Shown here: in pieces, positions 5,459-56,750 of the stretch
Layout: every line of letters begins with the position of its first letter
Position numbering within the stretch: the stretch's first letter is position 1
Assembly (NCBI GenBank): GCA_008632985.1
Contig: QPGO01000157.1
Span: forward strand, 124,001 to 181,696
Source: Psammoneis japonica
Taxonomy: Eukaryota
DNA: 57,696 nucleotides
Direction of reading: 5' to 3'
Notes under the pieces: model-generated
What the model was told of the DNA's origin: nothing
What the model saw: the letters and a program-made list of their open reading frames with translations, nothing else
The model's database searches: none
Position numbers and translations under genes: made by a program

Positions 5459-6929
5459 CACTGTCTCTCGTGGTGGCCGAAACTTCGATCATCAGGGCGA
5501 CGCCATTGTAAATAAGCTGCGACTGACAACGGTCGGACGCCCAAACGAGGTTCTTTTATTTCGCGCAGGCGCCCGTGCCCAACCGACGCAAAGAAGAAAA
5601 GCGACAAGAATGGTCACCTTTCTAGTCTATCTATCGCATCGATCCAGCGAGCCAAATCTTTTTGAATTTTCGAAAATCGCGGATCCCTCAACCAAAAATC
5701 CCAAAGGGCTTTTTCTCGGCTGCAGCTTTTTCATGCTTTGTGCTTTCCTCTTTTCTCTCGGTGTTTTGATCCACCACCTCTCGACCCAGCCATGCTGGCT
5801 GCACCCCACACAGGCAGGGCCTGGAGCATCTTGGTGCTCATGGAAACTGGAGCTTCTTTTTCACCTCGTTTGCTCTGCTTCATTTCATTGTTCATGACCA
5901 AGCTGCAGCACAACCTCAGAGTGGCTGGCCAAACCTCAAATGCCGCCGTTGTCAACAATTGTCTCGTCGCTCTCTTGTCCAGGGTTCTTTTTTTGCTTTT
6001 GTCATGCCCCCCTGCTGTCATGGATCTCAACAACATGGGCTTTCCCCATTTTAGCAACTTGGGCTCCTCACCAATGTCAACAGCAGCCATGCGGCAGACT
6101 CTGCCAATGCAGAGACACAGACCGCCCCCCTGTGTGGTGCTCCAGCTGCTCTCTCGCTCTCTCTCTGCCTGACAGCACAATGTGCTCATTGTCCACTCTT
6201 GCTCATGTCAGCTTGCTTTTGTTGGGTCTCTCTCACTTTTGCCATGTGTTTGGTCTCCTTGCCCATCAAATCAAAAAGCCACAAGATCAGTCAGTTGGGC
6301 ACTGTCTGGTGGACACATTGTTGTCTGTGATGCTGCTGTTGTGCTCTGCTCAATGTTTTTCAGCTCACCCTCAAATCACTCATCTTTGGCAGCTGCTAGA
6401 TTGGCCCACTTGTCAATGACCCAGTCTTTGTTGCCATGTGTGCTGCCATTGTTTTCTTCCCCAAGACCAGTGCTTTTTGTTGGAGTTGTTCAGCTGCTCA
6501 AAATGAAAAAGTGCAAGTGCACTCAGGTGTGCATGTGTGCCACAACATTGGCTCAAATGACCGGTGTTTCCTGGCCCAGTGACTCCTCACATGGCTGAAC
6601 ACAGCAATCCTTCAGTCAACAGCCAAGGTGTCCCTCTGCTCCTGGTGAACAGTCTGCAGCCACTGCCCCCTCCTGGCTTTGTGCAATTTTTGAAATGGCA
6701 CTTTGTGCCCATGCACTTTGATTTCAAGGTGTGCGTTTCTCCTCACATGGTTGACCACCCAAGCCCCTGTTTCTTCCAGCTGACAATGCTGCAAACTTCA
6801 ACACCAAACAACACCTGAGAAGATGCCAAACTTTTGAAGACAAGGGAAAAGCTTGCACGCCCCTTTTGAGCTTTGATCAAAGAGCGGCACTTGACTCAAT
6901 CCTGCTTTTTCACATGGCCATCACAGCAC

Positions 6930-9900
6930 CCACTCCATTTGTCCTGGTGTCATCCCAGGCACTTCTGCTTTCTTGGCACTGCTCACTTGTGATGCTTGCA
7001 AGAGGCCACCCACCATGACAACTGCTTCTTCCTTTTCAAAAATCACGTCACATTGCCGCTGAAAGCTTTGCAGCAGCAAACCAGTGTTTTGAGCTGCTGC
7101 TTGTTTCTTCTCTGTCACAGAGACTGGCTCCCCTCTGAGCAACACAGTGGCCATCAATGCTGGCAGTTTTGCAGAGAAATGGAGAGGAGTGTTTTGACAG
7201 TTTGGCTCAAGAAGTGGTGCTGAGAGGTTCTCTCATCATTCTTGACTGAACCCAGCAGCACATTTCCAGACATTTTTGAGCAGGACTCTGGATGCTGAGA
7301 TCTTGGCACAGAGTTCAAAAAGAGGGAGCACAAAACCACCAGATGGATGCATGACATTCAACTGACAGTGCACCCTTTGTTGGGTCCTTCTTTTCAGCAC
7401 CAGCAAACATCTTCTGCATGGCCCCATCATGCTCAGGTTCTGCATTTGTGCCCCATGTATGTACTGGCCCTAGGCGCTGAAAAAGAAGATGTGTTACGAC
7501 TTTGTCGTTGTGAAAATTATGAGCTAGTTTAGAGTAGAGAAAATGGGATCGTGCGAATAGGGGATCTTGCCAAATCCCTATTCGTTCGCATTTGGATCGT
7601 ATTAAATCGATCGTGTGTTCGCATCATGGATCGTGCGAATCAAGCCATCACGCGCCATGCACGAGTGATGTCATCGTGTGGAATCACGCTACCATCGTGG
7701 GCCAGACGACGGGCCAGTGTGCTTCACACGGATGCTCTCTTAGCATCCTTCTGGAATTGCCTAAGACCTAGAGCCACGCCCTCCTGTGGTCGTGCTTCCC
7801 AGGTGCGTGTTAACAACACTACGTTGCCACGCACAAGAGGCTTGTGCACGGTCTCGCCGTGTTGTCCAGCAGCGAGGCATGCTGCATTTGCTCTTTGCGG
7901 TCAAAGCTTTTGTTTTGTCCAGCAATGCCCTGCATGGCAGCAAATGATCACAGCTGTCATGACATTGACAACAGCCCTGCATCCTTGTGTGAGACCTTTA
8001 CAGGGTTTTTTTGCAGCAGCCTGCTTGGGCCAGTCTCATGTGGCCATGTGACTTTTTCCTTGCTCTCCCATGACCTGCTCTTGTGGCAACATTCTTGGGC
8101 TGATTTGCTCTCATCATGACATTCTTGGGCCAAAAATTCCATGCCATCCTTGCAGTTGCAAGCCCCCCTTGCAGTTGCAAGCCCTCAAATCCAGGTTGAG
8201 CCAGCTCACAAAAACAATCTTTCTTGCAGCTGTCTTGGGAATGATGTGCCACAAAAATCAAGAATGATCCAAGTGCATTGTGTGATTGTGCACATGTTGC
8301 AAAGGTTGGTTCAGAAGACAACTGTCAAATTTTGCATGCAAATGTGACAAGCAACAAAAATGTGTGCAAACTTTGCTCACAAGTCAGCAAAAGAAAATGA
8401 AGAAAAGCCATTTGTGTTTTCAAGATCTGGCATCACAAAGTTCATTCAAAGACTTTGGCTCTGTGAAGGTTCATTCATCTGCATGTTTTGAAATGATGGT
8501 GGTGTGAACAAATGTGGTGGTGGACAATGTGCTCAGAAACCTGCAGCATGCCATCAACAGGAGTGTTGAGGAAGAACTGCGTGCACACTCTGCACACATT
8601 TTTTCCAATCAAATGCATTTCTGACATGCCAGAAGAAGAGCAGGACATGCAAACAACTCAGTGAAAATGATGGGTTGTGTCATGTGACTCCTGAAAAATC
8701 AACCCAATGTCATTGTGTGTGAGGAGAAGAGCCACACACACTTTTCTGAGTTGCTTGGGTGAGAAGACAATCAATCAAGCAAAATGCTGTCTGCAGCACG
8801 TTTGTGCTCTCAATGAGAAGATCAGTTGACAAGAAACAAAATTCCACACCTGCAATGTTGTGCCCTCCACAGGTGTCAAATTTTTTCAAAAATCAATTGA
8901 GGTGGTCACTGCAGCTGCAGCTCTGAAAACAATTTTGACATTGCCAAAATTGTCATTTCCAAAGAGTGATGTTTGGCTCAACAATGCCTTTTCACATTGT
9001 TGTCATCACAGGCACTTCCACTCTCCTGGCACTGCACACTTCTTGTGCTGCTCATTGCTCATTGCAGGAGGTCACCCATGATGACAACTGCTTTTTCCTC
9101 ATCAAGAGCCACATTGCTGCTGAAAGTTTTGAGCCAGTCCCCAGTGTCTTCAAGTGCTGCTTGCCCCTTCTTTGTCACAGAAGCTGACTCCCCTCTGAGC
9201 AACACAATGGCCGTCAATGAACGTTGGTGCTTTCTCAGAAAAACAGAGAGATTGTCAACAATTTGACTCAAGAAGCAGCAGTGGGAGGGTCTCTCATTGC
9301 TCTTGCCTGAACCCAGCCGTGCAGCTGCAGACACATTTGGGCAGAACTCTGGATGCTGAGATTCTGTCAGAGCTCAAGACGAGAGAGCACAAAACCACCA
9401 GATGGAGGGCATGGCATTCAACTGACAGCACACCCTCCATTTGGCATTGCTTTTCAGTGCACCAGCAAACATCTTGTTCTCTCTGGGCACCCTGACATGC
9501 TCAAGTTTCACACTTGCTTGTTCCATCTAACAACACCCTGTCTGGTGGCAAACAATGACAGTTGTTGTGACATCATCAACAAAACAGCCCTGTCAACATT
9601 GTGTGAGACCTTGGCAGGTTTCTTTGTGCAGCCCTGCTTGGGCCAGTCTCATGTGGCCATGCAGCCTTTTCCTTGCTTTCCCATGACCTGCATTGTTTGT
9701 TGCAACATTCTTGGGCTGGTTTGCTCTTGTGACAACATTCTTGGGCCCAAAGTCCCAAGCCATCCTTGCTTGTGCAAGCCCCCACTGCACTTGCAAGCCC
9801 TCAAATCAAGGTTGAGACAGCTCACAAAATTGCTGTTTCTTGCTGCTGTCTTGAGGATGATGCACCATCAAAAATCAAGAAGAACACAAGTGCATTGTGT

Positions 9901-10015
9901 GATTGTGCACATGTTGCAAAGGTTGATTTAGAAGATGAAATGTCAAATTGTGCATGCCCAGTTTCTGCAAATGCAACAACAGTGTGTGCAAAATTTGCTC
10001 ACAAGTCAGCAAACA
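6930..10015 (+). repeat. Older direct duplication: ~6930-8395 vs ~8990-10015
   Basis: Shared colinear anchors, e.g. 'gagcacaaaaccaccagatgga' (~7326/~9385), 'gggccagtctcatgtggccatg' (~8027/~9640), 'caagtgcattgtgtgattgtgcacatgttgcaaaggttg' (~8270/~9887). Confidence 0.85.
7450..7900. other. ~450-bp insertion with normal TpA/CpG content inside the mutated block
   Basis: Abundant TA and CG. Absent from the paralogous copy near 9510-9530. Contains the hairpin 'cgaataggggat-cttgccaa-atccctattcg' (~7554-7584). Confidence 0.7.
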
Positions 10016-10030
10016 AGTCTGTGGCATTCT

Positions 10031-13000
10031 AAGCCAGAGCCCCATCTGCAACATGTTTTTGCTGTCAATGAGAAGATCAGTTGACAAGAAACACAATTTC
10101 TGTGCCTGTGATTGTGCTCTGCACAGGTGTCACTGCAGCTCTGAGAACAATGTTCAGATGCTGGCCCATTCATTTTCAGCCACAAATCTGGCATTGCCAA
10201 AGTTGACATTTGGGTTGACAGCCAATTTTTCCAATGGCCATGGATTTGCAATGTGTTTTGTTTTGTGGCCCAGCACCTTGCTCAGATTTGATTTATTTGT
10301 TTGAAGAGGAGCTGCCGCTTGGTTGCCCGTTGAATCTTCTTTTCAGCATTTCTGCTGCATTTGTCTCTTGCACGACAATGGTGCAACCCTGTTGCAACTC
10401 ACTGTGTGACCTCATTGCATGTCTGACAAAAATGGAAAAAAATTGTTGAACCAGCCCCTTTTTGATGACAGTGCAGCACAAACTTGAATCCTCCCCTTCT
10501 GTCAAATGTCAATTTGCACTCTGGAGTTAAGCTCACAATGTCTGAGGTGCAGCCCCCACAATGGCCATGTTGTCACTTGCTCCCCTGCCATCATGAATGC
10601 TTGCCAACTGGTTTCACCTTGTCATGACATCCCAATTTGACAAACCCCAATGTCAACCCAGATTGCAGCATGTGTCAATCTACACTTCACGCAAAGTCAA
10701 TTTGAAGCTGTCGGTTGACAACAAATGTGCCACACAAGCACTTTTTTGAGCACCAAGTTGTCAGGGGGGCTGACATGGCTGTGATTTGATTTGGTGTTTT
10801 GTGTTGGTCCATGCTTGCACAGTGCACTCTGTTTTGGATGTGACAGCACAGATTTCACACCAAACATGTCCGCTGTCTGCACAGCTCTTTTTTGTTTTTG
10901 TCTCTTGCAGAAGATTGCAGAGGGTTGTTTGGATGCCATGCTTGTCAAAGTGAAGGCACCAATTTTGCTTGTTGTTGGAGAGAAGCAAGGGCGAGCATTC
11001 TCTGCACACCCAACTCCAGGCCCAGACTCACAAGTGACAGCAACCAAGGCTTTGATGATGGAAAACTCATTTGATGTTGAGACTTTGTGCAAAGGTCAGC
11101 AGCATGAACAACGATTGGCGCCACATTGCAACAACTGTGTCGTCAATGAGAATGGCCACAAAAACCCACTCAACAACTTTCATGGCAGGAAAGCTTGACA
11201 AGAAGCCTCCAAAAATTGTGTGGCACACAACAAACAAAGCTCAACTTCACATTTTGGCTCACATCTCAACCAATCCTTCCATGAGATTTGTTCTTGCTTG
11301 AGCTCTAGATCAGGATAAAATGGAAGATGACTGGCCCAGCTGCAGCAGGTTTTCTTTCCTTCCAACAAAGAGAAAATGGTTTCAAAAATCAGGCACCTCT
11401 GAAAATTTCTCTGCTCTCCTCAACAAGCCCCCATTTTGCCACTGCAAAACAACTCCATGTCTCTGGCATTCCCAGCATGTTGCATTTTGAAGTTTTGCTC
11501 ACACCTGCTGTTAAACTCAGCAGTTGAGCCTTTGAATGAGTCACTCTGGAGTTTGGAAATTCAACTCTGCTGCTGTTGCAGACAAGGTGACATGGGGCCA
11601 CAATGCCTCAAGATCAACCTTGCAATGCCCAACCACATTTTTCAAATCTCTCCTGGAGTCTGCCAAGCACTGGCAATGCCCCTCTGGCTGCTTGCAGTTG
11701 TCAGGTTGGTTGGCACTGTCATGGGATCCTTGCACTCTGGAGTTGGGAAAAAAGCAAAGTCGGCTGTGGTTGGGGACAAGATGACATGGGGCCACAACAC
11801 AAGAACAAGATCAACCTTGCAATGCTCAGCTGCAGTTCTCAAAGTCTTGCCCGGGGCCCACCAGAAACCACCAGTGTCCTCAGCTTGCTGTTGTCAGGTT
11901 GGTTGGCACCATCATGGGGTCCTTTCACTCTGGGGGCTTGGAAGCTCATGTTTGCTTCTGTTGGGGACAACACAACATGGGCGGGCCAGCTGCAATGCCA
12001 CAAAAGTCAACCTTCTTGCAATGCTCAGTCACAGCTCTTCAAGTGTTGCCTGGGGTCCATCAGAGACCACCAGCACCTCAGCTTGCTGTTTTGTGAGGCT
12101 GGTTGGCACCATCATGGGGCCCTTTCTTTCACCCTTGAGCTCAGAAACTCATGTCTGCTTTTGTTGGGGACAAGGTGAAACAGGGCCACAACACTGCAAG
12201 ATTGACCTTGTGGTTCTTGAATCACACCTGGGGCCACTGGACACTGCCAATGCACTCAGCTTGCAGCTGTCAGGTTGGCTGGTGTCATCATACAGTCCTC
12301 TCACTCTGGGTTTGGCAGCTCAAGTCTGCTGCCATTGAGGACAAGGTGACATCATGGGGCCACAACACCACAAGATCAATCTTGCAATGCCCAACAACAG
12401 CTCTCAGAGTGTCACCTGGAGGGTCTGTCAGATGCCACCAGTGTCCTCAGCTTGCAGCTGTTTTGTGTTGACTGGCACCACCATGTTGCCCTTTTGCTGC
12501 AGAGTTGGGAAGCTGAAGTCTGTTTCTCCTGCTGGGACAAAAGGCGATGCAGGGGGGCACAAGTGCACAACAGGCATCGCACTGCTCAACCATGGTTGTT
12601 GTGGACAGTGTCTCCTGGGATCCACAAGAGACCACCAATGTCCTTGGCTTGTGCAGTTGTCTGGTTGGCACCATCCTCAGGCAGTCCTTTCACTCTGGAG
12701 TTGGGACTTTGAAGTTTGAGCTGTGATGTTTCTGGGTGAAAGGGTGCAACAAGGCACCACAGTTGCACAATGCTGGTCTTGCACTGCTCAGCGCTTGCAG
12801 CGCCACAGTTCTTGGAGTGTTGCCTGGGGTCTGAAAAGGACCACCCATTGTTGTGCCCCCAGCCTGCTGTTGTTGCTTGTTGGGTTGGTGGGTGCTGCCA
12901 TCATGGGGCCACTTCACTCTGAAGCTGAAGAGCTCAAGTCTTTGCCAACCTGCTGGGCACAGCTTGGTGTCTGCAGCCACTTGCACAACCAACTCTGTGA

Positions 13001-15750
13001 CTTGAGATGGGTGCATGTGTGACATTGATTGGTGCTTTGCATTGTCATTTTCACAATGAAGAAAAGCTCTTTACTTTCAAGATCCAGCATCACAAGGTTC
13101 ATTCAAAGATGTTGACTGTTTGAAATTTCAGGGGTGAAAGTGGTGGAAAATGTGTTCAGAAGCATGCACCATGCCATCAATGGAAGTGTTGAGCATGCTG
13201 TGTTTGCACTCTCCACACACTGTTTCCAACCAAATGCATTTCTTGCATGCCAGAAGAAGAGCAGGACAGACAGCAGATGACTCAATGTGAATGATGGGTT
13301 GTCACATCACTGAAAAGGTGACTCAATGATGTCATTGTGTGTGTCAAGAGCAGCAGATCCAAGCGTGCTTCTCTGAGTCAGGTGAAAAGACAGTTGATCA
13401 AGCAGAGCCCCATCTGCAACATGTTTTTTTGCTGTCAATGAGAAGATCAGTTGACAAGAAACACAATTTCTGTGCCTGTGATTGTGATCTGAAGAGGTGT
13501 CGCACAACATTTTGAAAAAATTGATGAAGGTGGTCACTGCAGCTGCAGCTTTGAGAACAACATTTTGATGCTGGCCAATTTTCAGCCACAAATCTGGCAT
13601 TGCCAAAGTTGACATTTGGGTTGACAGCCAATTTTTCCAATGGCCATGGATTTGCAATGTGTTTTGTTTTGTGGCCCAGCACCTTGCTCAGATTTGATTT
13701 GTTTGTTTGAAGAGGAGCTGCCGCTTGATTGCCCGTTGAATCTTCTTTTCAGCATTTCTGCTGCATTTGTCTCTTGCATGACAATGGTGCAACCCTGTTG
13801 CAACTCACTGTGACCTCATTGCATGTCTGACAAAAATGGAAAAAAATTGTTGAACCAACCCCTTTTCAATGACAGTGCAGCACAAACTTGAATCCTTCCC
13901 TTCTGTCAAATGTCAGTTTGCACTCTAGAGTTGAGCTCACAACGTCTGAGGTGCAGCCCCCACAATGGCCATGTTGTCACTTGCTCCCCTGCCATCATGA
14001 ATGCTTGCCAACTGGTTTCACCTTGTCATGACATCCCAATTTGACAAACCCCAATGTCAGCCCAGATTGCAGCATGTGTCAATCTGCACTTCACGCAAAG
14101 TCAATTTGAAGCTGTCGGTTGACAACAAATGTGCCACACAAGCACTTTTTTGAGCACCAAGTTGTCAGGGGGGCTGACATGGCTGTGATTTGATTTGGTG
14201 TTTTGTGTTGGTCCATGCTTGCACAGTGCACTCTGTTTTGGATGTGACAACACAGATTTCACACCAAACATGTCCACTGTCTGCACAGCTCTTTTTTGTT
14301 TTTGTCTCTTGCAGAAGATTGCAGAGGGTTGTTTGGATGCCATGCTTGTCAAAGTGAAGGCACCAATTTTGCTTGTTGTTGGAGAGAAGCAAGGGCAAGC
14401 ATTCTCTGTGCACCCAACTCCAGGCCCAGACTCATGAGTGACAGCAACCACCAAGGCTTTGATGATGGAAAACTCATTTGATGTTGAGACTTTGTGCAAA
14501 GGTCAGCAGCATGAACAACGATTGGTGCCACATTGCAACAACTGTGTCATCAATGAGAATGGCCATAAAAACCCACTCAACAACTTTCATGGCAGGAAAG
14601 CTTGACAAGAAGCCTCCAAAAATTGTGTGACACACAACAAACAAAGCTCAATTTCACATTTTGGCTTGCATCTCAACCAACCCTTCCATGAGATTTGTTC
14701 TTGCTTGAGCTCTAGATCAGGATAAAATGGAAGATGACTGGCCCAGTTGCAGTGGGTTTTCTGTTTTCTTTCCTTCCAACAAAGAGAAAATGGTTTCAAA
14801 AATCAGGTGTCTCTGAAAATTTCTCTGCTCTCCTCAACAAGCCCCCATTTTGCCACTGCAAAACAACTCCATGTCTCTGGCATTCCCAGCATGTTGCATT
14901 TTGAAGTTTTGTTCACCTGCTGTTGCACCCAGCAATCATGCCTTTGAATGGGTCACTCTGGAGTTTGGAAACTCAACTCTGCTGCTGTTGCAGACAAGAT
15001 GACATGGGGCCACAATGCCTCAAGATCAACCTTGCAATGCCCAACCGGCTGCAACACCACAAGATCAATCTTGCAATGCCCAACAACAGCTCTCAGAGTG
15101 TCGCCTGGGGGTCTGTCAGATGCCACCAGGCCCAGTGTCCTTGGCTTGCAGCTGTTTTGTGTTGACTGGCACCACCATGTTGCCCTTTTGCTGCAGAGTT
15201 GGGAAGCTAAAGTCTGTTTCTCCTGTCAGGACAAAAGGTGGTGCAGGGGGCCACAAGCACACACAACAGGCATCACACTGCTCAGCCATGGTTGTTGTGG
15301 ACAGCGTCATCTCCTGGGATCCACAAGAGACCGCCAATGTCCTTGGCTTGCAGTTGTCTGGTTGGCACCATCCTCAGGCAGTCCTTTCACTCTGGAGTTG
15401 GGGCTTTGAAGTTTGAGCTGCGATGTTTCTGGGTGAAAGGGTGCAACAAGGCACCACAGTTGCACAATGCTGGTCTTGCACTGCTCAGTGCTTGCAACCA
15501 CAGTTCTTGGAGTGTTGGCTCTGGGGTCTGAAAAGGACCGCCAGTTGTCATGCTCCCAGCCTGTTGTTGCTTGTTGGGTTGGTGGGTGCTGCCGTCATGG
15601 GGCCACTTCACTCTAAGCTGAAGAACTCAAGTCTTTGCCAACCTGCTGGGCACAGCTTGATGTTTGCAGCCACTTGCACAACCAACTCTGTGACTTGAGA
15701 TGGGTGCCTGTGTGACATTGATTTGCACTTTGCATTGTCATTTTCACAAT
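10031..15750 (+). repeat. Recent direct duplication: ~10031-13057 vs ~13400-15750 (second copy lacks ~11625-12362)
   Basis: Long near-identical stretches (ORFs 10697-11092 and 14101-14499 are nearly the same). The segment 'caatgagaagatcagttgacaagaaac' occurs three times (~8811, ~10066, ~13436). 13060-13400 also resembles 8395-8790. Confidence 0.92.
11530..12960 (+). repeat. Degenerate tandem array of ~7 units of ~195 bp
   Basis: Anchor 'g(g/a)ggacaag..gacat.gggccacaa...agatcaa.cttgcaatgc...gtcaggttggttggcac...cactctgg' recurs at ~11580, 11772, 11963, 12166, 12337, 12533 and 12733. Confidence 0.8.
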
Positions 15751-18700
15751 TGTGACATTGCGGGAAGGCACTGACAAGACCCAGGACTCAGCACTCACCA
15801 ATGACAAAGAAAAGCTGCCAGAACAAAGGCAAGAGAGGAGGTCAGATTTGTGACACAGGAGCAAGCAGCTTGTTGCAGGAAACAACAACCTGGCATTTTG
15901 TGCTTCCTTGCTTTGTTTCTTGAAACTCCACACAAGTTGTTAAAAACAGCTGAGGATGAGAAACAAAGTGCTGCAACACTGCACACAGGTGAGCAGGAAT
16001 GGCAGCATTGTGGCTGTGATCACAAAAAAAGCACCAAACGGACAACTTCTCTGCTGTTTTTTCCTGGGGATTGGCATCATGTCTCACAATGAAAAGCTGT
16101 CACACAAAAACTGGCTCTCTTTGAAACACAAAAGAGTCAAACATGATGCAATGCCAGCACAGCCAACAACACCAAGATTCAAGACAGATGACTGCAAGAG
16201 ACAATGGGGCAGACAATGAGATGACAGCTTGAATCACAGAGGGGGCAAAAACAATGAACATGGGACAAGAGCATGTGTCACATGTCAAATGTCACCAGGC
16301 TTGAAAGCAACCAGCATTGCTGAAAACCAAAATTAAAAAATGTGCGCCAGTTGACAAACAATGAACAAATGCAATTGCTGGCTTGCTCCAGCCAATGAAT
16401 GACAATGGTTGAAGAGATCAACTCAGGCATGTGCACAGAAAAAAATGAACCAGCACCTTTCACACTGTTGTTCCCCATCACTTTGCCAGCTCAGTCAACA
16501 GTTGACACTCTGACATTCACAATTGTTGCACTGTGGTTGACTTCAAAACAAATCTTGTCAAGAGCCCATGTGCACTGTGACAACAAATTTCCCTGAGCCT
16601 GGTTTCTTCCCACCATGCTGATTTGGCCAATTGTGGCTAAAAAGCCACTCATTCACAGCGAAGGAGCATTTGACCAGAGCACAAACTTCTCATCAAGCAA
16701 ATTTCAACTCTGAACAAAAACAACTTTGTTTTTCAGATGGCGGAGGTGAAAAGAAACTCCTGCAGGCTTGCCTCCCTTGGTTCTCAATGCAGCTTTGCAG
16801 CCAGCACCAGTCTTTGATTTGAAAAACCAAAAGGTTCTGACTGTTGTCATCAAGCACATTGCTTGCTTTCATTTTTGGCAATCCTTCAGATGTGAGGCCT
16901 GTGCAGTTAGGTTGCAAGCTTTGGAAGAGGCACCTTGAGCCTGGAGAGTCATGCCTTCTTAAATGCTGGGCTTCTCCAGCCCCTGTCATGGTCTGTGGCA
17001 AGGAGCAATGCATCCCAGACATTGTGAACAGCTCACATTTGACAAATTGCTTTTGATCCTCACTCATTTGCTTCAACCAACACAGGCACAACATCGTCAA
17101 TTTTTTTTGGCTGGAGGAGAGTCACCAGCCACTGCAAATTGTCAGACTGCTCAGATTGATCATGAGCAGGAAGAAGCGGAGCTGCACATTGCATTTTGGT
17201 GTTTTGGTGAGATTGAGCCTCACAAAGATCACTCTCGAAATGACTTCACACACAAGCCCAAATGTCACAAAGAGGACAATGCCGCCAATGGTTTCCAAGA
17301 GAAAGCTGTGCAACGACAAGGCCCTGTTTGTCTGTTTGTCACACATCAGCCAGACACACATCCAAACAAAAGCCAAAAGCAGCCATCAAGCATCTCACTT
17401 TTTGCAATGGTTGCCAGGCCAACTCAAAGTCAGAGTTGTGGGGTGCTGCAATTTAGTTTTGTGGGTTGTGACTGCCCTTGCCATTCAGCAACATGAAAAA
17501 ATCAAAGAGGTGCGCACTTTCTCTCTGACCAGTTGTGTTCTGCACACAGTTGCAAGGGCTGCTTCCAGTGCCATGCAATGCTTGCAGCTCCAGTGGCTTT
17601 TCACAATTGATGCACTGTCTTTGAAGGTGGCATGTGCTGGCACTCTGCTTGGGCTGATGCTTCTCTCTGTTCTTGACACAGCTGGGGTTGATGTGGGCAA
17701 CAAAATCAAGACATCTGCTTCCAAGCATTTCTCCATTCTGCCACAAGAGCAGAGCAAGCATGCAAGTTCAATGATCCCTGTGGCTGATGGGCACACTCAC
17801 CACCTTCTCCATTGCGGGGGAGCAACAGCCAAAACAAAACCTCCAAGTGCAGCAGCCTCCTCTCCCAAAGCTCAAGACTTTGGATGTTTTTTCAGGGATG
17901 AGCAACATTTTTTGTTGTTGGGTGAATGGCTTGGGTTTTGCCAACAGATCAGATGCAGTCGCTGTGCATGAGTCTTTTGCTTGAGGAGCAATTTTGGAGT
18001 GGTGGCATCAAAAAGCAAATGTTTCAAACCACATCTCTTTCTTTTCTGAGATCTTTGAAACCATGCACCAGCAACTGTCACACAGAGTTTTTGCTGCTGG
18101 GGTTGTCATTGGCAGAGGATCCATTTGACTGGCTTGTCCTGCAGTGGTGCCAACAGGCTTGTCAGGTTTTGCTGATGAGGCCATGGCATGGGTGGCAAAA
18201 ACCCACCCATTGTGCATGGTTTCAGATTTCAGGTTCATGACAGTGGCCACACATTTCAAGAATGCAAGACCAAGATGAGCTTTGGAGCTGGACGGCAGTC
18301 ACAAGAACAGCATTGGTGGAGAGAGTGTGCAATGCACAAGGAGACCAGTTCTGTGCACTGTGGTGCAATGTCACGAAAAAATCTGTCTGCCCCCATTTGT
18401 TCAAGTGCCCCAAAATGCAGACAATGTGAATGTTGGGCCTGGCTGTGTGCACCAGGATTGGAGTCCAACAAGATTGGGCTGGCCACTTGCACTCAATGTC
18501 AATGTGATTGGTGCTGTGTGAAAGAAGCGCAGTGTGTGAGAAGACTCATCCATTGTCAGGAGCTGCATCCTCCATTGACAATGAGCACAAATGCAGCACC
18601 AGCAAAAGAGAAAGAGATGCTGTGCTGCCTTGCCAAGAATGACTTTGGCAGTTCATCACAAGGCCCAAGTTTTGCCTGCAAGCATGCTTGCATGATGCCA

Positions 18701-19742
18701 CCACAGTGCTCATTGAAAAAAAGCTGGGACGTGTCCAAAGAAAAGCCGCTGTTGTGTGCAACATCTGGCCCTCTTTTTGTGCATCCACAATGAGGGATTG
18801 TTGTGCTGTTGGTGCCAACTCAGGGGCCATCACCTCTTGAATGCACAGCCCTCATCCAAAACAACCACATCTCTCTTGCAACAGAAGGAATTGCTGTCAC
18901 AGCAGACAGCGCAATTGCAGATGTCTCATCATGTTGAATGGGCTGCTCAGGAGGCACAGACTGTGGCAATGGAGCAAAGTGGAGACAGGCTTCAGCCAAC
19001 AGTCAATGAGCAAAGTGGGAATGATTGTCAGCATGGGCAACATGACATGACTTGTTGCTCTCTGACTTCTCCTGTTGGGGCTGGAGAGCTGAGGTCAAGG
19101 CCAACGCTCACTGCTTCAGTGTCATCATGAATGATTGGATGTTGTTTCTGAGGATGCAGCACTTGGTTCAAGGAGTAAAAGGTGTTTACAAAACAACATC
19201 CACCCAAGCAATCCTGTGCCACCAAGTGCTTCACAAAGCACAAGGAATGACCAGGTTTGGAGTGCGGGTTCACTCGACCTTTCCTTGGGGCTTGACTGGG
19301 GTAGATTGGCTGTATCTCATTTTTGTTTGTTTGTTTGTTTGTTTGTACCTCATGGATGTGATTGATTGTGAAAGCATCGTGAATTGTGTGGTCTTTCGAT
19401 TCGCTGCGATTTTGTTTGAAACTAGCAACAAGGTTGCTTTTCGTGGCTGCGCATTTATCGTAGAAACCTTCAAGGATGTCGCACATAATTTTTTAATCAG
19501 TATGTCGGATCGCCAAGTTATGGCAACCAATCCAAAAAGCGAGAAACTGATCTCAAAATACGGTGGGACTTCACCTCTAGAGATTATGTAGTGCCTCGAG
19601 TCCCTACCGGTAGTCATAAGCGGCAAACGAGGAGCACAGCACAACAACAGCATAATTGAAACAAACTACTACATGTGTGCTTACTACTCCATGCCTGAAA
19701 AGGTGATTGTAAGTTGCAATGTTGAGCTTTTCGATCTTCCTC

Positions 19743-34438: not shown

Positions 34439-34467
34439 AAGACTGGCCAGATAGAAAGGCACACCCG
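34439..34467 (+). repeat. Left terminal inverted repeat (29 bp)
   Basis: aagactggccagatagaaaggcacacccg, the exact reverse complement of 39920-39948. Confidence 0.95.
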
Positions 34468-34593
34468 CGCGCTCTCGAGCTCTCAAACTTTGTTTCGAGA
34501 AAAACGCGTTGAAAAGAATTTTGACCAAATATAAACATTTCAAGTACGGACATATAAGATATTATAAATTATTCTGATACTTTATAGACAGCA

Positions 34594-36746: not shown

Positions 36747-36921
36747 CTCGCTGCGCCATTTTTTGTCGGATTTTTTCGAAAGAGAGATGGCAAAGGATTT
36801 CAAAATTGAATTGAGAACGAAGGCATTAAGAAAGAACATGCTTTTGTGTTTAATTAAGATGCAAACACATGATTGAACACAGCTGCATGATTTTCCCCGT
36901 GCACAAATTCCCGCCAAGCTT

Positions 36922-36961
36922 CAACGGTCAAAACCATTGCAACAAAATTGTTTGACCGTTG
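36922..36961. repeat. 11-bp perfect inverted repeat with 18-bp spacer between the two transposon genes
   Basis: caacggtcaaa (36922-36932) ... tttgaccgttg (36951-36961). Confidence 0.85.
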
Positions 36962-37438
36962 TTTTTGTCAATGGCTTGCAATTCGTTTAGAAAGCATTGT
37001 TGGCTTGCGTTGAACACATCATGCGAAAGCGGAGATCAAGAGCTTTCGGTCGCGCTGCACCGGTTGACAGGAACAACCACCGCTGATTGGGGGGCGCGCT
37101 TCCCCCTGACGTCACGGGTTGACCGCGCCAACCGGGGGGAGTCCTCAGTGGTTCCTGCCCGCAGGAGGCCGGCGCCGGAACCACCCCCGGAGCCGGTTCC
37201 CGGACAGGCCTGTGGTTGGTGAAGATGAGAACCTTCAGAACAGGACAAGACATAAAATCCACTTGTCGAAATGTTCTTTCTTCCCACTCGAATGTCAACA
37301 TGATTCGAAACGACTCCACTTGTCGAACGCCATGAGTGAGCGTTTGATTTCAAAAACCTCTTTTCTTTTGACAGTGAGGTGGGTGCACCCCAAAAGACGA
37401 TCCCTCGAGGCTATCATGATGAGCAGAACAGACCCAAG

Positions 37439-39490: not shown

Positions 39491-39919
39491 GGTTGAAGGA
39501 GGTCGAGTGTTTTTTGTGTTTTTGTAACTCTATAGCCCCTGCATTTTTTGTTTTCAATTTTTTCCATCCTCCCGTGTAGACCCCCAGTGAAAAATGTACC
39601 AGAAGAAAGGCTAAAAGCCGGTCAAGCCGCTGCTTTTGTTGTCTCACAACATTTAACGACGCGTCATCGGATCACTTAAGTGTCAGGGGTCACGTGAAAC
39701 TGTCGGACATTTTTTGATCGTGACTGAAAAGTCATCAATAAATGTTCTTTCATCGTCTATAATTGAATGATGTCCTGCCCCTAAGTAGAAAGGGCCTGCG
39801 TAGGTTTTGGTACTGATGTACGCGGTAACCGGCGCTCACCGAGGCCCTAACCCCCAGGCTCCAGAGAGCCTGATCGGTGTCCATACCTCAAAATCGACCA
39901 TACGAGCTATTTCGAGCTC

Positions 39920-39948
39920 CGGGTGTGCCTTTCTATCTGGCCAGTCTT
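39920..39948 (-). repeat. Right terminal inverted repeat (29 bp)
   Basis: cgggtgtgcctttctatctggccagtctt. Confidence 0.95.
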
Positions 39949-43149: not shown

Positions 43150-45890
43150 TATAAAGAGTTTGTTGGCAGCTCTTCAGCCCACACCCAACAAGCTCATCTC
43201 ACAGCTGGGGTGACTCCTGTGTGTGTCTTTGACAAGGCAAGGCATCCAATGAAGAAGAGAGTGTTGTGCAGCGAGGAGCGTGGGGGGACCACGACCACAG
43301 GGGCAGAAAGGCAGAGCAGGCAACCTCTCATTTCTGGAGCTGGCCAACTCAACTCCAGCCATTGCAAAGAGCAAGAGAGACCTGTGTGCAAAAATCCTGT
43401 CCCAAATGTTGTTGCTTGCTTCTTGTGCTGCAAAAGAGTGGGGGTGCTTCTTGGCAACAGAGTGTCTGTGCTTTGAATGTGCTCAATTTGAGGCTCAGTG
43501 CCAGCTCATGTCAAGTTGACGACAGACAGCTGCAGACAAGGCCAGAGAGGCAAAGAAAAGTGATCCAAGTTGGATGGCAATGAACAAAAATCTCTGCACT
43601 TGCAGTTCTTGATTGTTGAGCAGCATGTGAGTGAGCCGTGAGAGCAGTGCTGTCTGCTTTTTGACAAGTGCCACGACATTCATGGAGAGGGGATGATGTG
43701 TGGGCTCTCTTGCACGTGCCTCCTCTCATGGCACCACAGGACATCAGGTGCAAGCAACATGCTCATGGGAAGTTGGGCATGCATTCAAGCATTTGGGTGT
43801 TTGCGCTGCCACCAAAATCTGCATCATCCAAGGAGGGCACTTTTTCTTGAGAGCAACTCCTCAAACTGCAGCTGAGTGCAGACAAGAACCCTCTTTTCTT
43901 GCCACTGAGCTTGAGATTTTGCGGCTCCTTTTGTCAGAGGATTTTTTTTGCTCTTTAGACCAAGAAAATCTGCAGCCTGAAGGATGAGACATGGGCTCAA
44001 TTTGCTCAGCTGCACTGAAAAGCTGGCAGCCCTGCAGTCAGTCCAGCACAGCGCAAAGGAGGGGAAGGAAGAGGAGGGCTGCCCAGACAATTGTCTGTTC
44101 AGGGCACTGAGCATGGGAGGGATGTTGCACAACAGGGTTGGAGAAATTTTTTGAGACTCCAAGTTGCAGCGCCAAACTGGCAGCACAGCTCAAGAAGCAC
44201 CGCTGCCCCCTCTTTCTGGCATGAGGAGACTGACAAGAGCTGTGCACTTGTGGGAGTGGGAGACAACGACACAAGGCGAGCATCATCTCTGCAGTCAAGC
44301 ATTGCTGTTTTTTGATGTTGTCATGACATTGAATGGCTTTGGACTGCTGCCCATCTAATTTGTTTTGATGAGCTTTTCCAGATGATGAGCTGGCAGACAG
44401 ACAATGTCTGTTTTGGGATCCCCTGTCCTCCTTCCTCAACAACAAACACACTTGGTGACAGGACAGTTGTTGGCACAGATGCAGACCATCCTTTTGGGGT
44501 CATTGTGCCAAAGGCCTCCATGATGTCTTCTCCTCAACAGACTGACTCTCCTGACAGTTGAACCCACAAATTCAATGCAAGCATTGCACCCCCAAACTTT
44601 TCTCAAATGTTCATTGAGCTGTTCAAGATTGTGCTGTGAGACATCTGCAGCACCAAGAGCACATCAACCAGTTTGTGGCAAAGAGAGAGGAGCCTGAACA
44701 AAAACAGGTTGTCAGAGTCTTGCTCTTTTTAGTCAAAGAAGCCAAGGCCCTTGTGATGAGCAAGTTGTGACTTTCCCATGATGAACAGAGCAATTTTGGT
44801 CAAACAGCAGACAGCAGTTGATGGCAAAGCTTTCAGAGGCAGCATGTTGCCAATTTTGCCTGTGATTGAGTGCTCAAAAACAAACTTGAAAAACTCAAGA
44901 ACATGGTCAACAAACCAATTCTTGCCCCGCTGGTCCTGTTCAAAGATCCCCCCAGGAGTCGTGTTGTTTGTGTTCTCATTGCTGAAGAAGTGGGTGGAAG
45001 ATTGCAAAACTTCAGTGCATGTGAGCATTGAGTGGCATGTTTCAAAGTGCATGCCTCTGACACACATCACAGTGATGGGGTCTTCTTTGCTCTCATTGCT
45101 CACGACAACAGGCACGCTGTCCTTTTGCAAATTCCTTCAAGGAGCTTGCTGACATCAAGTGGAGTTGTGTGTTTGAGATGAGCCCATCAATGCAAGAAGA
45201 CAAAAACATGTCTTGATCTGTGTCAAGGTTCAGTGCATGAAGGGTGGAACTAATGCAACACCACAGGCAGCAAAGTTTTGCTTGGGTGTCTAAAGAAAAA
45301 ACTGTGTGAGAGGCCTCAAAAAGCTGTGGGGAGAACTTCAGAACATTTGCCATGTGTTGGAGCAACAAAAGAAGAAGCTCACATTTCTTGTGATCTTCTT
45401 GCTGTGCTTTGGCTTGTGTGGTGCTCAAGAAAACATTCCAGAAACATTTCAGCTCTCCTCCACAGCAGCTGAGCAGTGGCGAAGAGCACCCCCTTTGCCT
45501 CTCCCTGCTTTTTGGAGTGTTTTTGGCAGCACTGTTTTGTCTCATTTGCACTGTGGCAGAGGACAAGGAAAAGGCAAGAAGAGTTCACCACATCTTGCAT
45601 GGGCACACCACCATGGCCCTTTTTCAAAACAAAGTGCCCATGATCTTGCAAGCAGCTGGCAGCTCAAAGAGGAGGCACAAAGGGGTCACTCTCCTGGCAG
45701 CCTGGCTTGCGCAGAAAAGTTGCCTCTGGCTGGGCAGAGGAGGAGACACCAGCCCCTGCAACTTTGTTGCTTCTTGCTGCCACAAAGCTGGCAGTGGAGA
45801 GAGACAGAGTGCAAAGAGACAGTGGAACAATGCCCACATGTCGAGGAAGCATGCATGTGTTGGGAGTTGGCAACGGCCACGGAAAAGAAT
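43150..45890. mobile_element. Second TpA/CpG-depleted degenerate repeat block
   Basis: Same composition as 5640-19300 (very few TA or CG; Cys/His-rich spurious ORFs). Family not identifiable. Confidence 0.6.
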
Positions 45891-46016
45891 GGCTCATTAC
45901 CCGAATAAAGCGGAGGCCGAGTCGTCGTCATTATTCATGCTGTACATGCGATGGCGAGCGGCGAGCGGCGAGCGTTCTTAAGGAAGTGAACGACGTGCAG
46001 CGAAAACAGCAGCGAC

Positions 46017-46627
46017 ATGGCGACAGGGTTGAGTTTCCCCTTGTTGAGACGGTGTTGCTTTCCATTAGTGCTGCAACTTGTCTTGTTGGCGCTGGGCACG
46101 TCATTCACATTTAGACAGCACATCCACCACTGCCTCCAAATTCAATTCACGACTTCCAACAATCTCGTCTGTTTTCTTCTCAAATCGACTACCTTGTTGA
46201 TGTACGAGGCGCTGTTCAAGACGCTGGTTTTGAGAAGGAATGGAAAGAGTCAGCTGCTTTGCTTTCGGAATCGCTTGGTCTTGAATTGGATGCAGCTGAG
46301 GCATGCTTAGCTGAAACATGGAAGTGGAAGAGCTTGGCCATCTGCAAGTCAAAGATCGCGAAGAAGTTCATCAAAACAATCGCTCCTGATAGCAAAGCCG
46401 TGCAGCAAGCCTTAGAATGGCTGAAAAACGGACCGTTGGCTCTGACCAATGAACAAGTAAAGGATTCTATTGCCGACAACCCTGAAGCTTATCTTCTGAA
46501 CCCCGAAAAGACCTACCATGAAGCGCTGAAAGCCGCACCAGAGGAATATTCAAGTCCTGACAAGTTCCGTGATTTGTTGCTGGAAAGATCCATCGGTACT
46601 AGCATGTACATACAATTGCATCGATGA
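46017..46627 (+). pseudogene. Helical protein fragment of unknown function
   Basis: Protein-like ORF 46259-46627 (…QALEWLKNGPLALTNEQVKDSIADNPEAYLLNPEKTY…) with no clean 5' end. It lies next to the mutated block. Confidence 0.35.
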
Positions 46628-47232
46628 TGGATGTGCGTCAGAGTGCGGCAATTGCTGGGTCTCGTACAAGAATCGTGTCTAGAGTCTAGACTGTGCAGCG
46701 CTCCGGAGGATCAAACGTGTCAACTACTGTCTAGAAAACGAAGTAGTCTAGTGCACTCTCAAGGGAGTCAGTCACATTAATTTTGCCTGTGATATGGATC
46801 TACCGGCACTATACTTATCACATACTGTAGCTTTAAAAAGACAGAATCAGCTTGGAAAACAAAAAATAGCTATGCTGTTCCAGACTTTGTGAGCAGCGTC
46901 AAACCTGGAGAAGTAAATAGTTACACAAAACTGCTAAAATTCACGTGTTCATATCTATGATTACCGTCATTGCATTGGATTGCTTCGGTAGGAACAGAAC
47001 CAGGGTCGGCTTGGCATCGAAGAATGAATTATTGTATTATATCAGTGAACGAATATATTTTCATGATGCTCATTTTTTTCTCTGTCATCTTCCAAAACTG
47101 CGCAGCGCCACAACGAAGACACCTTATTATTATGTTTACGATTGAGCATTGAGACCGACATTAGGTACGTTAGAAGCAGCAGCAACAGCCAAAAAGAGCG
47201 GCGACGGTGATACCATAGATTTTTCACCAGTC

Positions 47233-53854: not shown

Positions 53855-56750
53855 AGGCCATTGTCGTGTTTTTGTTGAGGATGCAGTGGGTGGTGTCCAA
53901 CGCAGCTCTTCCGCAGAAATCATGTGCGACGTGTGCAGCGCTGGAGAAATCACCAAAGGCTCACTTTCTACCAGATGTTCAGTGCATGTGCGCAAGGAGC
54001 TGGACCTGGCACTGGTGGAAAAGAAAGCAACGAGGACGAGGACTGGCTGTGTCACTGAGAAACATGGAATGCAAAGAACCATTTTGCGAGCCCATGTTTC
54101 TCCCGTTTTTCCAATCGCCCCTGAGCCACTGGGTGCATTTGGCAGCTCCGCCGTTGTGCCCTCAAGCTGATTTGATTGCTTTTCGACTTGCTGGGCTCAA
54201 TCAATGCCTCACTGTTGATGCACAGGGTGTCTGTCACACTTGCGGCTGGGCTCGGAAACCAGAACATGAGCCACTGGGTGACGGACGAAGCAGAATCCCA
54301 TCGTCAAAGCCACGAAGAGGATCTAATCGACGAAGGTGGATTTGTAGATCAGCAAGAGCTTCCACGCTTTCGCATTGCACCTTGCATTCCACGTGCACCA
54401 ACAAAGTTGCCCGGAAATGGTCGTCTGTCTCTCCCACCTGTGGCGCTCTGAAAGACATTGTTTGCCAATTGTTCCCTTTCGCATGATTGCTTTGTCAAGG
54501 AGGGCTGTTTTGGTGTGCACTTGACACCCCCAACACCAGCTCTTGGGAGGGAGAGTTCTTTGGCAGCAAGTTGGTGAAAAAAATTTTGTGGCTGTTGTGA
54601 CTGCAAAAGTGAAAAGAGAAGAAATGAAGAGACCTCTTTGGTGTGTGGGAAGGAGGAGCAAAAGAGAGCATGTGCCAAGAAACCCAACAAGGGCACAATG
54701 CAGCAGCACTGGTGGCTTTTCTGCTGGATGCAAAGAGAAGCCCCACAAACACAGCCCAGCCTTCAGTGCCATTGCCCTGAGGAACACCCCCCAGTGCCAC
54801 CAGTGGCATGCAAGGCTTGCTCTCAGAAGTGCACAACAAGCAAGCTTCTGCAAACAATGCATGCAGGCAAGTCATTGCCACTTCCAAGCCACAGACAGTG
54901 GGAGCAGCAAGCATCTGTTTCTTTGCAACATTGTTTGCTTTTTGTCAGTGTGGTGTGCTGTGCAGCCCATGGCTCACTTTCCAAGATGCTCTCTCACAGT
55001 CACTTGAGAGGCCTCTTTTTTGGACTTGAAAGATTGTTGCCCAGCCATCATGCAACTGAGGATTTCATGTTCTTGTGGGGACAGGTGGTTTGCAGGTTTC
55101 ACAGGTCAGACATGCTGACAGCGGTGCATCAGCGGCATTGATCAGGGCTTGTGCACAGTGGCTCAGAAGCAGGTCTTGCGGAGGCCTGAGTCTCAAGTGG
55201 GTGCCAATGCTCATGGTGTCATTTGAGAATGTGGCAGTTTGTTGTGCTGGCAACAGCTTTTGCAACAGCACAGAAATGTCGCGGAGGTGATTTGACCCAT
55301 GGAGGGTGTGTTTGCCAAATGCACCAGTGCTCTGGGGAAACAAGGAGACTGCAAGTTTTGTGGTTTGTCTGGCAATTGCACCCAAATGTGGTGTGGCCCA
55401 TCTGGGGCATTGATCTTGATGAAATGGACATGCCCACAACAAGGGTCAGCACAGACCACTTGAGAGAGGAGGTGTCTTTTTTTAGGGCTTGACACCCCAG
55501 CTGTGTGGCTTCTGAAGGAAAAAGGCACAGCACAGTGCACCCTGATTGAGGGCAGGCTGGTTGCAACAGGAGCAGTCTGCTGTGTGGCCCAAGCTTGATG
55601 ATCACCCATGGTTTTGGGAGATGGCACACCCAGCTGTGTGTNNNNNNNNNNNNNNNNNNNNNNNNNNNNNNNNNNNNNNNNNNNNNNNNNNNNNNNNNNN
55701 NNNNNNNNNNNNNNNNNNNNNNNNNNNNNNNNNNNNNNNNNNNNNNNNNNNNNNNNNNNNNNNNNNNNNNNNNNNNNNNNNNNNNNNNNNNNNNNNNNNN
55801 NNNNNNNNNNNNNNNNNNNNNNNNNNNNNNNNNNNNNNNNNNNNNNNNNNNNNNNNNNNNNNNNNNNNNNNNNNNNNNNNNNNNNNNNNNNNNNNNNNNN
55901 NNNNNNNNNNNNNNNNNNNNNNNNNNNNNNNNNNNNNNNNNNNNNNNNNNNNNNNNNNNNNNNNNNNNNNNNNNNNNNNNNNNNNNNNNNNNNNNNNNNN
56001 NNNNNNNNNNNNNNNNNNNNNNNNNNNNNNNNNNNNNNNNNNNNNNNNNNNNNNNNNNNNNNNNNNNNNNNNNNNNNNNNNNNNNNNNNNNNNNNNNNNN
56101 NNNNNNNNNNNNNNNNNNNNNNNNNNNNNNNNNNNNNNNNNNAGCGGCACTTGTTGGTGGGTGTGCTGGCATGGTGGGGGTGACTGCAGCATGGGATGGA
56201 AGAGATGCTTCCATGATGTTCAGCATGCTGCAAGTTTGCAATGTGGAGAGCTGTCAAGCAGCCGCCAAGAAGAGGGTTGCTGGGGGGTGTGTCCGTTGTG
56301 AGAGAGCAGTGTTGAGGGGAGCATGATCGATTGTTTGCACTGGATTGCATTGAAACTCTGTGCACACAGAAAGCATGTGACATCCATGTCCATGACTGGG
56401 GGCTCTTCTTGCCTGTCAGGTGACAGACTGCTCTTTGTCATCACGACATGTGTCGCTTGGACCACTCACATTGGTCGAATTTTTAAAAAATGGGGTGGTG
56501 TGCCGCGTGGGGAATCATCCAATTCAAGAGGCAAATCAATCTCAAGCACAAGCAACACGCAACTGACTGGAGACTGGACTCCTCGATGAGATGATGCTCC
56601 TTTTTCTTCTTCTTGTTGCTTGGTCATTGTCCTTCCGACTGTTGAAGGACAAACATCAATGCGAACATCAATGCGATCGCGGTGATCGACGATGGACGAC
56701 GTTTTCAGTTTTTTTTTGGCGCGCAGCGACGAAGCAGGACGAGATCTTGA
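53855..56750. mobile_element. Third TpA-depleted degenerate block (CpG also lost in the core ~54500-56280), with assembly gaps
   Basis: Composition as in the other blocks. N-runs at 53838-53854 and 55642-56142. Confidence 0.55.
55642..56142. other. Assembly gap (N-run)
   Basis: 501 consecutive N. Confidence 0.99.

Follow-up and report, generated by a model that had tools for sequence, protein, structure and literature searches.

TpA-depleted tracts in a diatom contig: evidence for a directional, TpA-specific mutator of inserted DNA

Here we describe a window of 57,696 nucleotides (nt) from the diatom Psammoneis japonica (contig QPGO01000157.1), by which we mean the whole stretch of DNA that was analysed. 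Five tracts in this window contain almost no TpA. One is the interior of a 5.5-kb DNA transposon with terminal inverted repeats (TIRs), element C (34439..39948), which encodes a transposase of the DUF7869 family and a putative tyrosine recombinase. The others are called tracts A, B, D and E, in their order along the window. Between the tracts lie host genes of an ordinary eukaryotic kind, matched by Pfam to TPR, SET, metallophosphatase, NUDIX, a NuA4 subunit and a pyridoxal phosphate (PLP) enzyme; their TpA content is normal. Our results support a directional, TpA-specific mutator confined to insertions. The original prediction for this stretch went further, to a repeat-targeting genome defence not yet described, and as a whole it is supported only in part.

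Composition of the tracts and their surroundings

The original prediction held that four repeat regions had lost nearly all TpA and gained TpG and CpA, while the neighbouring genes had not. The hand counts behind it are exact (25 TA in 2401-3000, 1 in 35041-35640 and 0 in 8401-9000). We scanned the window in 600-bp bins and then compared the observed/expected ratio (o/e) of dinucleotides in each tract with four blocks of host background. Per bin, TpA falls from about 17–37 in the background to 0–3 inside the depleted blocks, and the o/e of TG+CA rises from about 1.1 to 1.8–2.0. At background density the five tracts (22,477 bp) should together hold 924 TpA; they hold 74 (Poisson P ~6e-290). The TpA o/e is 0.02 for 5651-7250, 0.03 for 7851-19300, 0.13 for 34851-39000, 0.04 for 43151-45900 and, on either side of an assembly gap, 0.04 for 53855-55641 and 0.03 for 56143-56750. 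In the four host blocks it is 0.58–0.63. CA and TG lie at 1.38–1.89 in the tracts and at 1.01–1.23 in the background. Most 600-bp tract bins also pass the cut-offs (Rho_TA <=0.43 and Rho_CA+TG >=1.52) of a preprint on the chlorarachniophyte Bigelowiella natans (Mettrop et al., bioRxiv 10.64898/2026.01.13.699255; cited here and below as far as its available text goes). The depletion of TpA, with matching enrichment of CA and TG, is a real and very strong signal. All four predicted regions are depleted, but the first consists of two tracts (A and B) split by an island of normal composition.

The other AT-rich dinucleotides do not share this fate. AA, AT and TT are without depletion in the tracts (the o/e of AA is 1.04–1.45), and the GC content is 0.47–0.52, compared with 0.46–0.49 in the background. 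The tracts are complex sequence rather than microsatellite; Tandem Repeats Finder reports only 2 short arrays in 5600-19400. Judged by the positions of TA, the tract edges are sharp to tens of base pairs (~5633, 7458/7820, ~19300, 43152, 45898, 53832/53969 and 56754), and the host intergenic DNA that adjoins them is normal in TpA.

The original prediction overlooked a loss of CpG that is present in four of the five tracts (o/e 0.10–0.30) and nearly spares element C (0.78 for 34851-39000). If both dinucleotides were lost through simple transitions, the deficit of TA and CG should equal the excess of TG and CA. This is what we observe. Deficit and excess per kb are 87.9 and 90.0 in A and B together, 38.3 and 37.4 in C, 85.6 and 72.8 in D, and 69.3 and 74.1 in E. 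The total density of pyrimidine-purine dinucleotides (YpR) is unchanged, at 225–242/kb in the tracts and 237.5/kb in the background. TG and CA are about equally frequent in A and B (1500/1515), C and D, and less even in E (281 TG/234 CA).

The two losses can be separated. In tracts A, B and D about 95% of TpA and 85–88% of CpG are gone, in tract E about 95% and 55%, and in element C about 80% and 10%. Since element C has lost most of its TpA and kept most of its CpG, the loss of TpA is a separate and faster process. In element C it is at least about 15-fold faster per site (ln 0.2/ln 0.9). The loss of CpG fits the ordinary decay of 5-methylcytosine (5mC) in methylated diatom transposons: the CG o/e is 0.10–0.30 in tracts A, B, D and E, and the mass balance holds. 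According to the available text of PMC9998398, DNMT5a methylates the CpG of diatom transposons.

Element C and the direction of change

Element C is bounded by perfect 29-nt TIRs at 34439-34467 and 39920-39948. In the contigs of a public run (X1) the depth over the element is 230–1633, compared with 57.9 in its flanks. One X1 contig also joins position 34438 to 39957, with 15 other letters between them, at a depth of 24.8. Because this joint has a depth of 24.8 against a flank depth of 57.9, the insertion appears to be hemizygous or polymorphic and the element recently mobile. Element C thus seems to be a multi-copy family that has moved recently despite its hypermutated reading frames.

The DUF7869-family transposase lies on the minus strand (34594..36917) in two overlapping open reading frames (ORFs), 34594-35469 and 35409-36917. 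The former matches Pfam DUF7869 (PF25273) at 1.3e-18 with 67.7 bits, compared with a gathering cut-off of 26. Its full-length relatives P0123 and P0124 also match DUF7869, and with tblastn the alignment of full-length relatives covers both ORFs. Base 35418 is absent from most other copies of element C (depth 219/256 in run X1), hence we read the split as a +1 frameshift private to the window copy.

On the plus strand (37379..39490) lies a 703-aa ORF, open and heavily mutated, that we place by homology as a Crypton/NDC10_II-like putative tyrosine recombinase. It has 407 relatives at E<=1e-3 and is 41% identical to one of them, P0001. The window ORF itself has no match to NDC10_II (PF16787) even at E<=1; three of its relatives (P0001, P0134 and P0138) score 27.6–45.2 bits for this family, where the cut-off is 26.3. 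NDC10_II is Crypton-related. A metagenome scan found 1 relative locus, and two scans of viral contigs found none.

A few observations on intron-like joints belong here. A second run, X2, whose kind is not recorded, spans 37671-39538 and not the transposase half of the element. Among its intron-like joints, which lie at 38224-39252 and 42221-42349, is a skip of 87 nt with CT..AC borders at 39164-39252, inside the plus-strand recombinase ORF. The skip at 39164-39252 would stem from an antisense transcript across the transposon that is spliced. The same run contains an intron-like 127-nt CT..AC skip in the minus-strand gene of the PLP enzyme (42221-42349). A third run, X3, had nothing that matched the window.

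The TpA-depleted interior of element C runs from 34651 to about 39000. It contains 8.3 TA/kb, compared with 41.1 in the background, and 49.9 CG/kb, compared with 55.3. The non-coding spacer between the two genes (36918-37378) has a TA o/e of 0.08. As the spacer is as depleted as the ORFs, selection at the level of codons is not the cause.

The proteins of element C allow us to give the change a direction. The recombinase was aligned with 35 relatives of nearly full length, and the analysis used the 13 columns in which at least half of them have Tyr; each relative was scored leave-one-out. The window copy has Tyr in 3 of these columns, Cys in 4, His in 5 and Leu in 1, whereas each relative has 7–12 Tyr and 0–2 Cys or His. 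The 13 conserved Tyr columns of the transposase read Tyr once, Cys six times, His four times and something else twice; none of the 10 relatives has more than one Cys or His there. In both proteins pooled, 19 of 26 conserved Tyr (TAY) are now Cys or His (TGY or CAY) and 4 are still Tyr. Across the 19 amino acids with a sufficient number of conserved columns, Tyr is the sole outlier: its retention is 0.23, compared with 0.54–0.92 in the relatives. Other residues are well retained (Trp 12/12, His 7/8, Gly 9/9, Arg 16/18). ATA, GTA, TTA and CTA codons are nearly missing from the ORFs of element C.

One could argue that the family never had these TpA. However, Tyr makes up 1.4% of the recombinase ORF and a median of 3.3% in 152 relatives, and a metagenomic relative (L001) has a normal TA o/e of 0.73. 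Hence, the family is not intrinsically TA-poor. The comparisons support a directional change from TA to TG or CA that appears to be specific to the TpA context, which is what the original prediction had concluded from conserved Tyr positions. The six peptide motifs that it quoted are all present in the ORFs of the two proteins. It had also considered that intact copies might already carry Cys or His at these sites; the relatives have no more than two per set of 13 columns.

Four fragmentary relatives from public protein sets (P0167, P0137, P0222 and P0276) are Tyr-poor as well (0.6–1.3%) and rich in Cys or His, although alignments of such fragments are weak. At one conserved Tyr column that reads Cys in the window copy, P0222 reads His. 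It may be that related elements in other places have undergone the same process.

A mutator of this kind has a peculiar effect on reading frames. Under the genetic code, no change from TA to TG or CA makes a stop out of a sense codon, and TAA and TAG themselves are lost. Counted in all frames, TAA and TAG together drop from 17.0/kb to 1.7–5.2/kb in the tracts. As the change creates no stops, reading frames of 703, 502 and 291 aa have stayed open in the heavily mutated element C. The frames of the CpG-poor tracts are broken, since CGA is turned into TGA there as well.

Copies of the same sequence can be compared with each other. Five duplicate pairs within the window show 80 adjacent double differences, of which 35 have CA in one copy and TG in the other; every other type occurs at most 4 times. 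The two pairs of the direct duplication at 10031..15750 in tract B contribute 12 of the 35. Such a doublet is an ancestral palindromic YpR that was resolved differently in each copy, that is, by independent hits after the copies diverged. We also compared element C with its copies among the X1 contigs, using the 15 listed differences (40 of all 285 differing positions are listed). All 15 fall in YpR dinucleotides. They include 4 TG/CA doublets, 3 sites at which other copies retain TA, 3 sites with TG in the window and CG in the others, and 1 site with CG in the window and CA in the others. Most TG or CA states are nevertheless common to the copies, and 157 of 417 X1 contigs of element C are at least 99% identical. 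Because these states are shared, much of the conversion is older than the latest copying. Hypermutation and amplification are interleaved.

The TpA that survive are not a random sample. We compared the contexts of the 74 TpA in the tracts with those of 1299 background TpA (chi2 73.6, P ~1e-16; Y, pyrimidine; R, purine). YTAR accounts for 40 of the 74 survivors and for 205 of the 1299 background sites, an apparent survival of 27%. The mixed contexts RTAR and YTAY account for 28/74 and 667/1299 (5.9%), and RTAY for 6/74 and 427/1299 (2.0%). The bias towards YTAR is present in each tract. A sequence preference among survivors argues for an enzyme or another sequence-specific agent rather than diffuse damage. 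Among the products in element C, RCAR and YTGY are in excess by 14.0/kb, RTGR and YCAY by 6.4/kb, and TA in mixed contexts went to RCAR or YTGY about 2:1. If element C once had a host-like composition, this tentatively suggests that A before a pyrimidine (TAY) is preferred.

Tracts A, B, D and E

Tract A (5633..7457) is degenerate DNA with a TA o/e of 0.02 and a CG o/e of 0.21. The last flanking TA is at 5632 and the next one at 7458, and none of its ORFs has a Pfam match. Between tracts A and B lies the island (7458..7898), 440 bp long and sharp-edged, with TA (7458-7820) and CG (7475-7898) at background density; for 7251-7850, which overlaps the island, the TA o/e is 0.48. The island has no Pfam match. 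One possibility is that host DNA was left over between two insertions, another that the island is itself a younger insertion.

Tract B (7899..19300) is degenerate and repeat-bearing. Over 11.4 kb it has an o/e of 0.03 for TA, 0.10 for CG, 1.89 for CA and 1.86 for TG. It contains a direct duplication on the plus strand (10031..15750), in which 10031-11634 resembles 13400-15046 (95.5% over 1512 nt by blastn) and 12363-13057 resembles 15052-15750 (92.1% over 708 nt). The internal duplications of the tract as a whole are 75–95% identical. Most of the conversion in tract B is older than its internal duplication.

Tract D (43153..45897) is single-copy degenerate DNA (TA o/e 0.04, CG o/e 0.14). A single X1 contig of 10,568 nt, with a depth of 57.9, contains it together with its flanking genes, and over 39957-47000 there are 17 letters that differ between that contig and the window.

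Tract E (53855..56753) is broken by a gap of 501 N at 55642-56142. Its two halves have a TA o/e of 0.04 and 0.03 and a CG o/e of 0.30 and 0.67. CpG is poor in the core only, being near normal in 53865-54286 and normal from about 56444; TA is back at 56754. Hence, the TA-free zone outreaches the CG-poor zone at both edges of tract E (53855-54300 and 56444-56753), as it does slightly at the left edge of tract A. The TpA process either has the wider reach or sets in earlier.

Tracts A, B, D and E contain 153 stop-to-stop ORFs of at least 70 aa, and 147 of these gave 0 credible Pfam matches. Four matches at E 0.0036–0.0082 among the 147 are all under the gathering score, and we take them as chance. 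A Pfam scan reading through stops (as X) found 0 families in 3 of the 6 frames of 15700-19300. The comparison of two tract-B ORFs with a protein atlas was uninformative (best scores 0.78). When 13 relatives of the transposase and the recombinase were searched against the window with tblastn, only element C was matched, hence the other tracts are not old copies of element C.

The surrounding DNA looks like that of a diatom and not like Bigelowiella. The best matches of the metallophosphatase ORF are at most 54% identical, and all 8 organism-named matches among the 120 listed are diatoms. Among the listed matches the complete names are Nitzschia, Phaeodactylum, Seminavis and Craspedostauros; the other four are truncated MMETSP names. 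Host DNA whose composition is normal contains a local direct repeat of about 190 bp, with 81.7% identity between its copies (24930-25119 and 25261-25442).

Mechanism, rival explanations and known systems

We think it likely that the tracts are transposons or other foreign insertions in a diatom-like nuclear genome that have been eroded in vivo by two separate mutational processes at YpR. The faster process would be a targeted A:T to G:C transition at TpA only. A change from A to G on one strand would give TpG and on the other strand CpA, with the two strands affected independently. The likeliest chemistry is perhaps the enzymatic deamination of adenine to hypoxanthine in the DNA of silenced or foreign chromatin, with TAY preferred, and this would be the same process that has been observed in real time in B. 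natans. The slower process would be the deamination of 5-methyl-CpG in methylated transposons. A hypermutated element would then retain long reading frames that encode proteins full of Tyr to Cys or His replacements.

Several points weigh against this explanation. Run X1 may derive from the same culture as the assembly, which makes it weak as an independent confirmation. The foreign origin of tracts A, B, D and E is inferred from composition and internal duplication, because no recognisable transposon or viral protein is found there. A CA/TG doublet can derive from CG as well as from TA, so that in CpG-poor tracts the doublets do not isolate the TpA process. The survivor bias towards YTAR could partly reflect new TpA rather than resistance. 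Lastly, the ends of element C are normal in TpA, with an o/e of 0.85 in the 212 bp at the left and 0.69 in the 458 bp at the right, and at 0.48 the final 490 bp of the recombinase ORF fall in between. The region of 34.7–39.0 kb in the original prediction therefore holds for the interior of the transposon and not for the rest of it. A process that merely covers the insertion does not explain these spared ends. It is possible that selection maintains transposition-competent ends, as copies with mutated ends may no longer move and a recent insertion would then have intact ends, or that the transcribed interior is targeted.

The original prediction also held that the process acts on silenced repeats. 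Its restriction to sharp-edged stretches of inserted or degenerate DNA stands, but targeting of repeats is unsupported: tract D is single-copy, and the main target in B. natans is stated to be so as well.

Of the other explanations, the most serious is a heritable modification of TpA in silenced DNA that mispairs or decays to give T to C or A to G, much as 5mC does. It could be N6-methyladenine, or a thymine that an enzyme of the TET/JBP type has oxidised to 5-hydroxymethyl- or 5-formyl-uracil. When oxidised, thymine pairs wrongly with G, and 5-hydroxymethyluracil in dinoflagellates favours TpA. TpA and CpG, the two self-complementary YpR, are lost in the same tracts with strand symmetry, TG being about as frequent as CA, and the TA-free and CG-poor zones almost coincide. 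However, element C loses TpA and little CpG, which would require two marks laid independently. The hypermutation in B. natans was episodic, occurring in only 11 of 15 lines (bioRxiv 10.64898/2026.01.13.699255), which suits an enzyme that is switched on better than steady decay. We therefore regard such a base mark as unlikely. A bias of damage or repair is more unlikely still. Here damage at TpA, for example the ultraviolet TA photoproduct, or synthesis of the DNA polymerase eta type would go uncorrected in heterochromatin. The depleted tracts are probably silenced DNA, and the WA hotspot of polymerase eta includes TA. A WA motif should nonetheless have affected AA, which is undepleted; the neighbouring host intergenic DNA is TpA-normal up to edges sharp to tens of base pairs; and 80–95% of TpA have been lost while other substitutions are modest.

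It is very improbable that TpA avoidance was inherited or selected in the element families or in a donor genome rather than produced by mutation in this host. In favour of such an origin, most TG and CA states are common to the 95.5% identical duplicates and to the copies of element C, and an element with perfect TIRs seems still mobile. Against it, the relatives have normal Tyr and one of them is TA-normal, the spacer, though non-coding, is depleted to the same degree as the ORFs, and conserved Tyr have been replaced, likely catalytic ones included. The copies also differ from each other by CA and TG as well as by TA and TG or CA, and unrelated tracts bear the same signature. Least probable of all, to the point of being hardly credible, is an artefact of sequencing, base-calling or assembly in modified or repetitive DNA. 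Some platforms do miscall systematically at methylated motifs, and the scaffold contains N gaps. Yet contigs of the public run reproduce element C and tract D (17 differences over 39957-47000, at the depth of the flanking genes), the pattern follows a codon logic from Tyr to Cys or His, and the same signature has been validated in B. natans with Illumina data from mutation-accumulation lines. We also rejected GC-biased gene conversion, given that the CpG-poor tracts show no rise in GC and that AA, AT and TT have not been affected.

To our knowledge, no natural process was known to erase TpA specifically before the 2026 preprint. The evidence from B. natans comes from a single chlorarachniophyte. 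Our window adds a near-saturated signature on a bona fide DNA transposon. The process would thereby extend to a second major algal lineage, in which model diatoms offer knockouts and methylomes that make the enzyme and the targeting rule testable. It may be a widespread means of eroding foreign DNA. One could go further and speculate, although we doubt that it is so, that TpA hypermutation is an ancient, conserved genome defence of SAR algae (stramenopiles and rhizarians). It would erase TpA from both strands of silenced foreign DNA by means of either a base mark on TpA or a DNA adenine deaminase with sequence specificity, and it would work much faster than the CpG methylation that it accompanies. 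The long frames with Tyr to Cys or His replacements could in that case feed novel or domesticated proteins. Our analysis provides new handles on the process: its separability from CpG decay, its extended context (YTAR apparently resistant, TAY tentatively favoured) and the preservation of ORFs. Annotators will meet the consequences in the form of long open ‘genes’ without Tyr and with an excess of Cys and His inside dead transposons.

How does this process relate to known ones? Like the repeat-induced point mutation (RIP) known from fungi, it is a dinucleotide-specific transition hypermutation of transposon or repeat DNA with sharp borders, and both can be read as genome defence. Fungal RIP, however, changes C to T mainly at CpA, so that TpA goes up, GC goes down and stops are created. 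In our window TpA is erased, CpA is enriched, GC is unchanged or slightly up and no sense codon becomes a stop. RIP is triggered by duplication; element C is multi-copy, and tract D lies on a single-copy contig. The decay of 5mC shares with our tracts the gain of TG and CA with strand symmetry, and for tracts A, B, D and E it would account for the CpG part. It is impossible for 5mC decay to remove TpA, of which element C has lost about 80%, compared with about 10% of its CpG. The original prediction was thus right that neither process accounts for the loss of TpA, the direction being opposite to that of RIP and element C keeping most of its CpG. Editing by ADAR and APOBEC is similar in that it, too, is a clustered, context-biased transition hypermutation of parasitic nucleic acid, and the preference of ADAR for a 5' U has been argued to match T-A (bioRxiv 10.64898/2026.01.13.699255). 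ADAR and APOBEC act on RNA or single-stranded replication intermediates, whereas the changes here are fixed in genomic DNA and affect both strands equally. Element C, a cut-and-paste TIR transposon without an RNA intermediate, differs from their substrates.

The closest parallel is B. natans. The original prediction suspected that the process had not been described. Our literature search for TpA-specific hypermutation in diatoms found nothing, but a chlorarachniophyte case is described in the 2026 preprint by Mettrop et al. (bioRxiv 10.64898/2026.01.13.699255), which alone among the papers found bears directly on the process. In mutation-accumulation lines of B. natans, two viral insertions received 231 of the 302 nuclear mutations. 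All but one of these (230/231) were A to G or T to C, and according to the authors all GC-biased ones were on TpA, at a rate about 1000-fold over background. The main target, a nucleocytoplasmic large DNA virus (NCLDV), is stated to be single copy. Genome-wide there are 124 TpA-poor, CpA+TpG-rich clusters, and an ADAT2-like deaminase was proposed. In the available text of the preprint there is no mention of CpG, of diatoms or of any wider sequence context.

There are differences between the two cases. B. natans is a rhizarian (a chlorarachniophyte) and our host a diatom (a stramenopile). The targets in B. natans are a giant virus and a virophage, and the identifiable target here is a TIR DNA transposon, recognisable as foreign by its TIRs, its DUF7869 transposase and its NDC10_II-like recombinase; tracts A, B, D and E are without a recognisable domain. 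The depletion here is near saturation (o/e 0.02–0.13), compared with a Rho of 0.45 in the NCLDV region of B. natans. The loss of CpG in four tracts and the YTAR survivor bias are not reported in the available text on B. natans. Mutations were observed there in real time, and here the process is read from standing sequence. Nevertheless, the likeness is close. In both cases A:T changes to G:C only at TpA and gives TpG or CpA depending on the strand. In both cases the outcome is TpA-poor, CpA+TpG-rich DNA next to host DNA that is spared, and the clusters of B. natans are enriched in transposon and viral domains.

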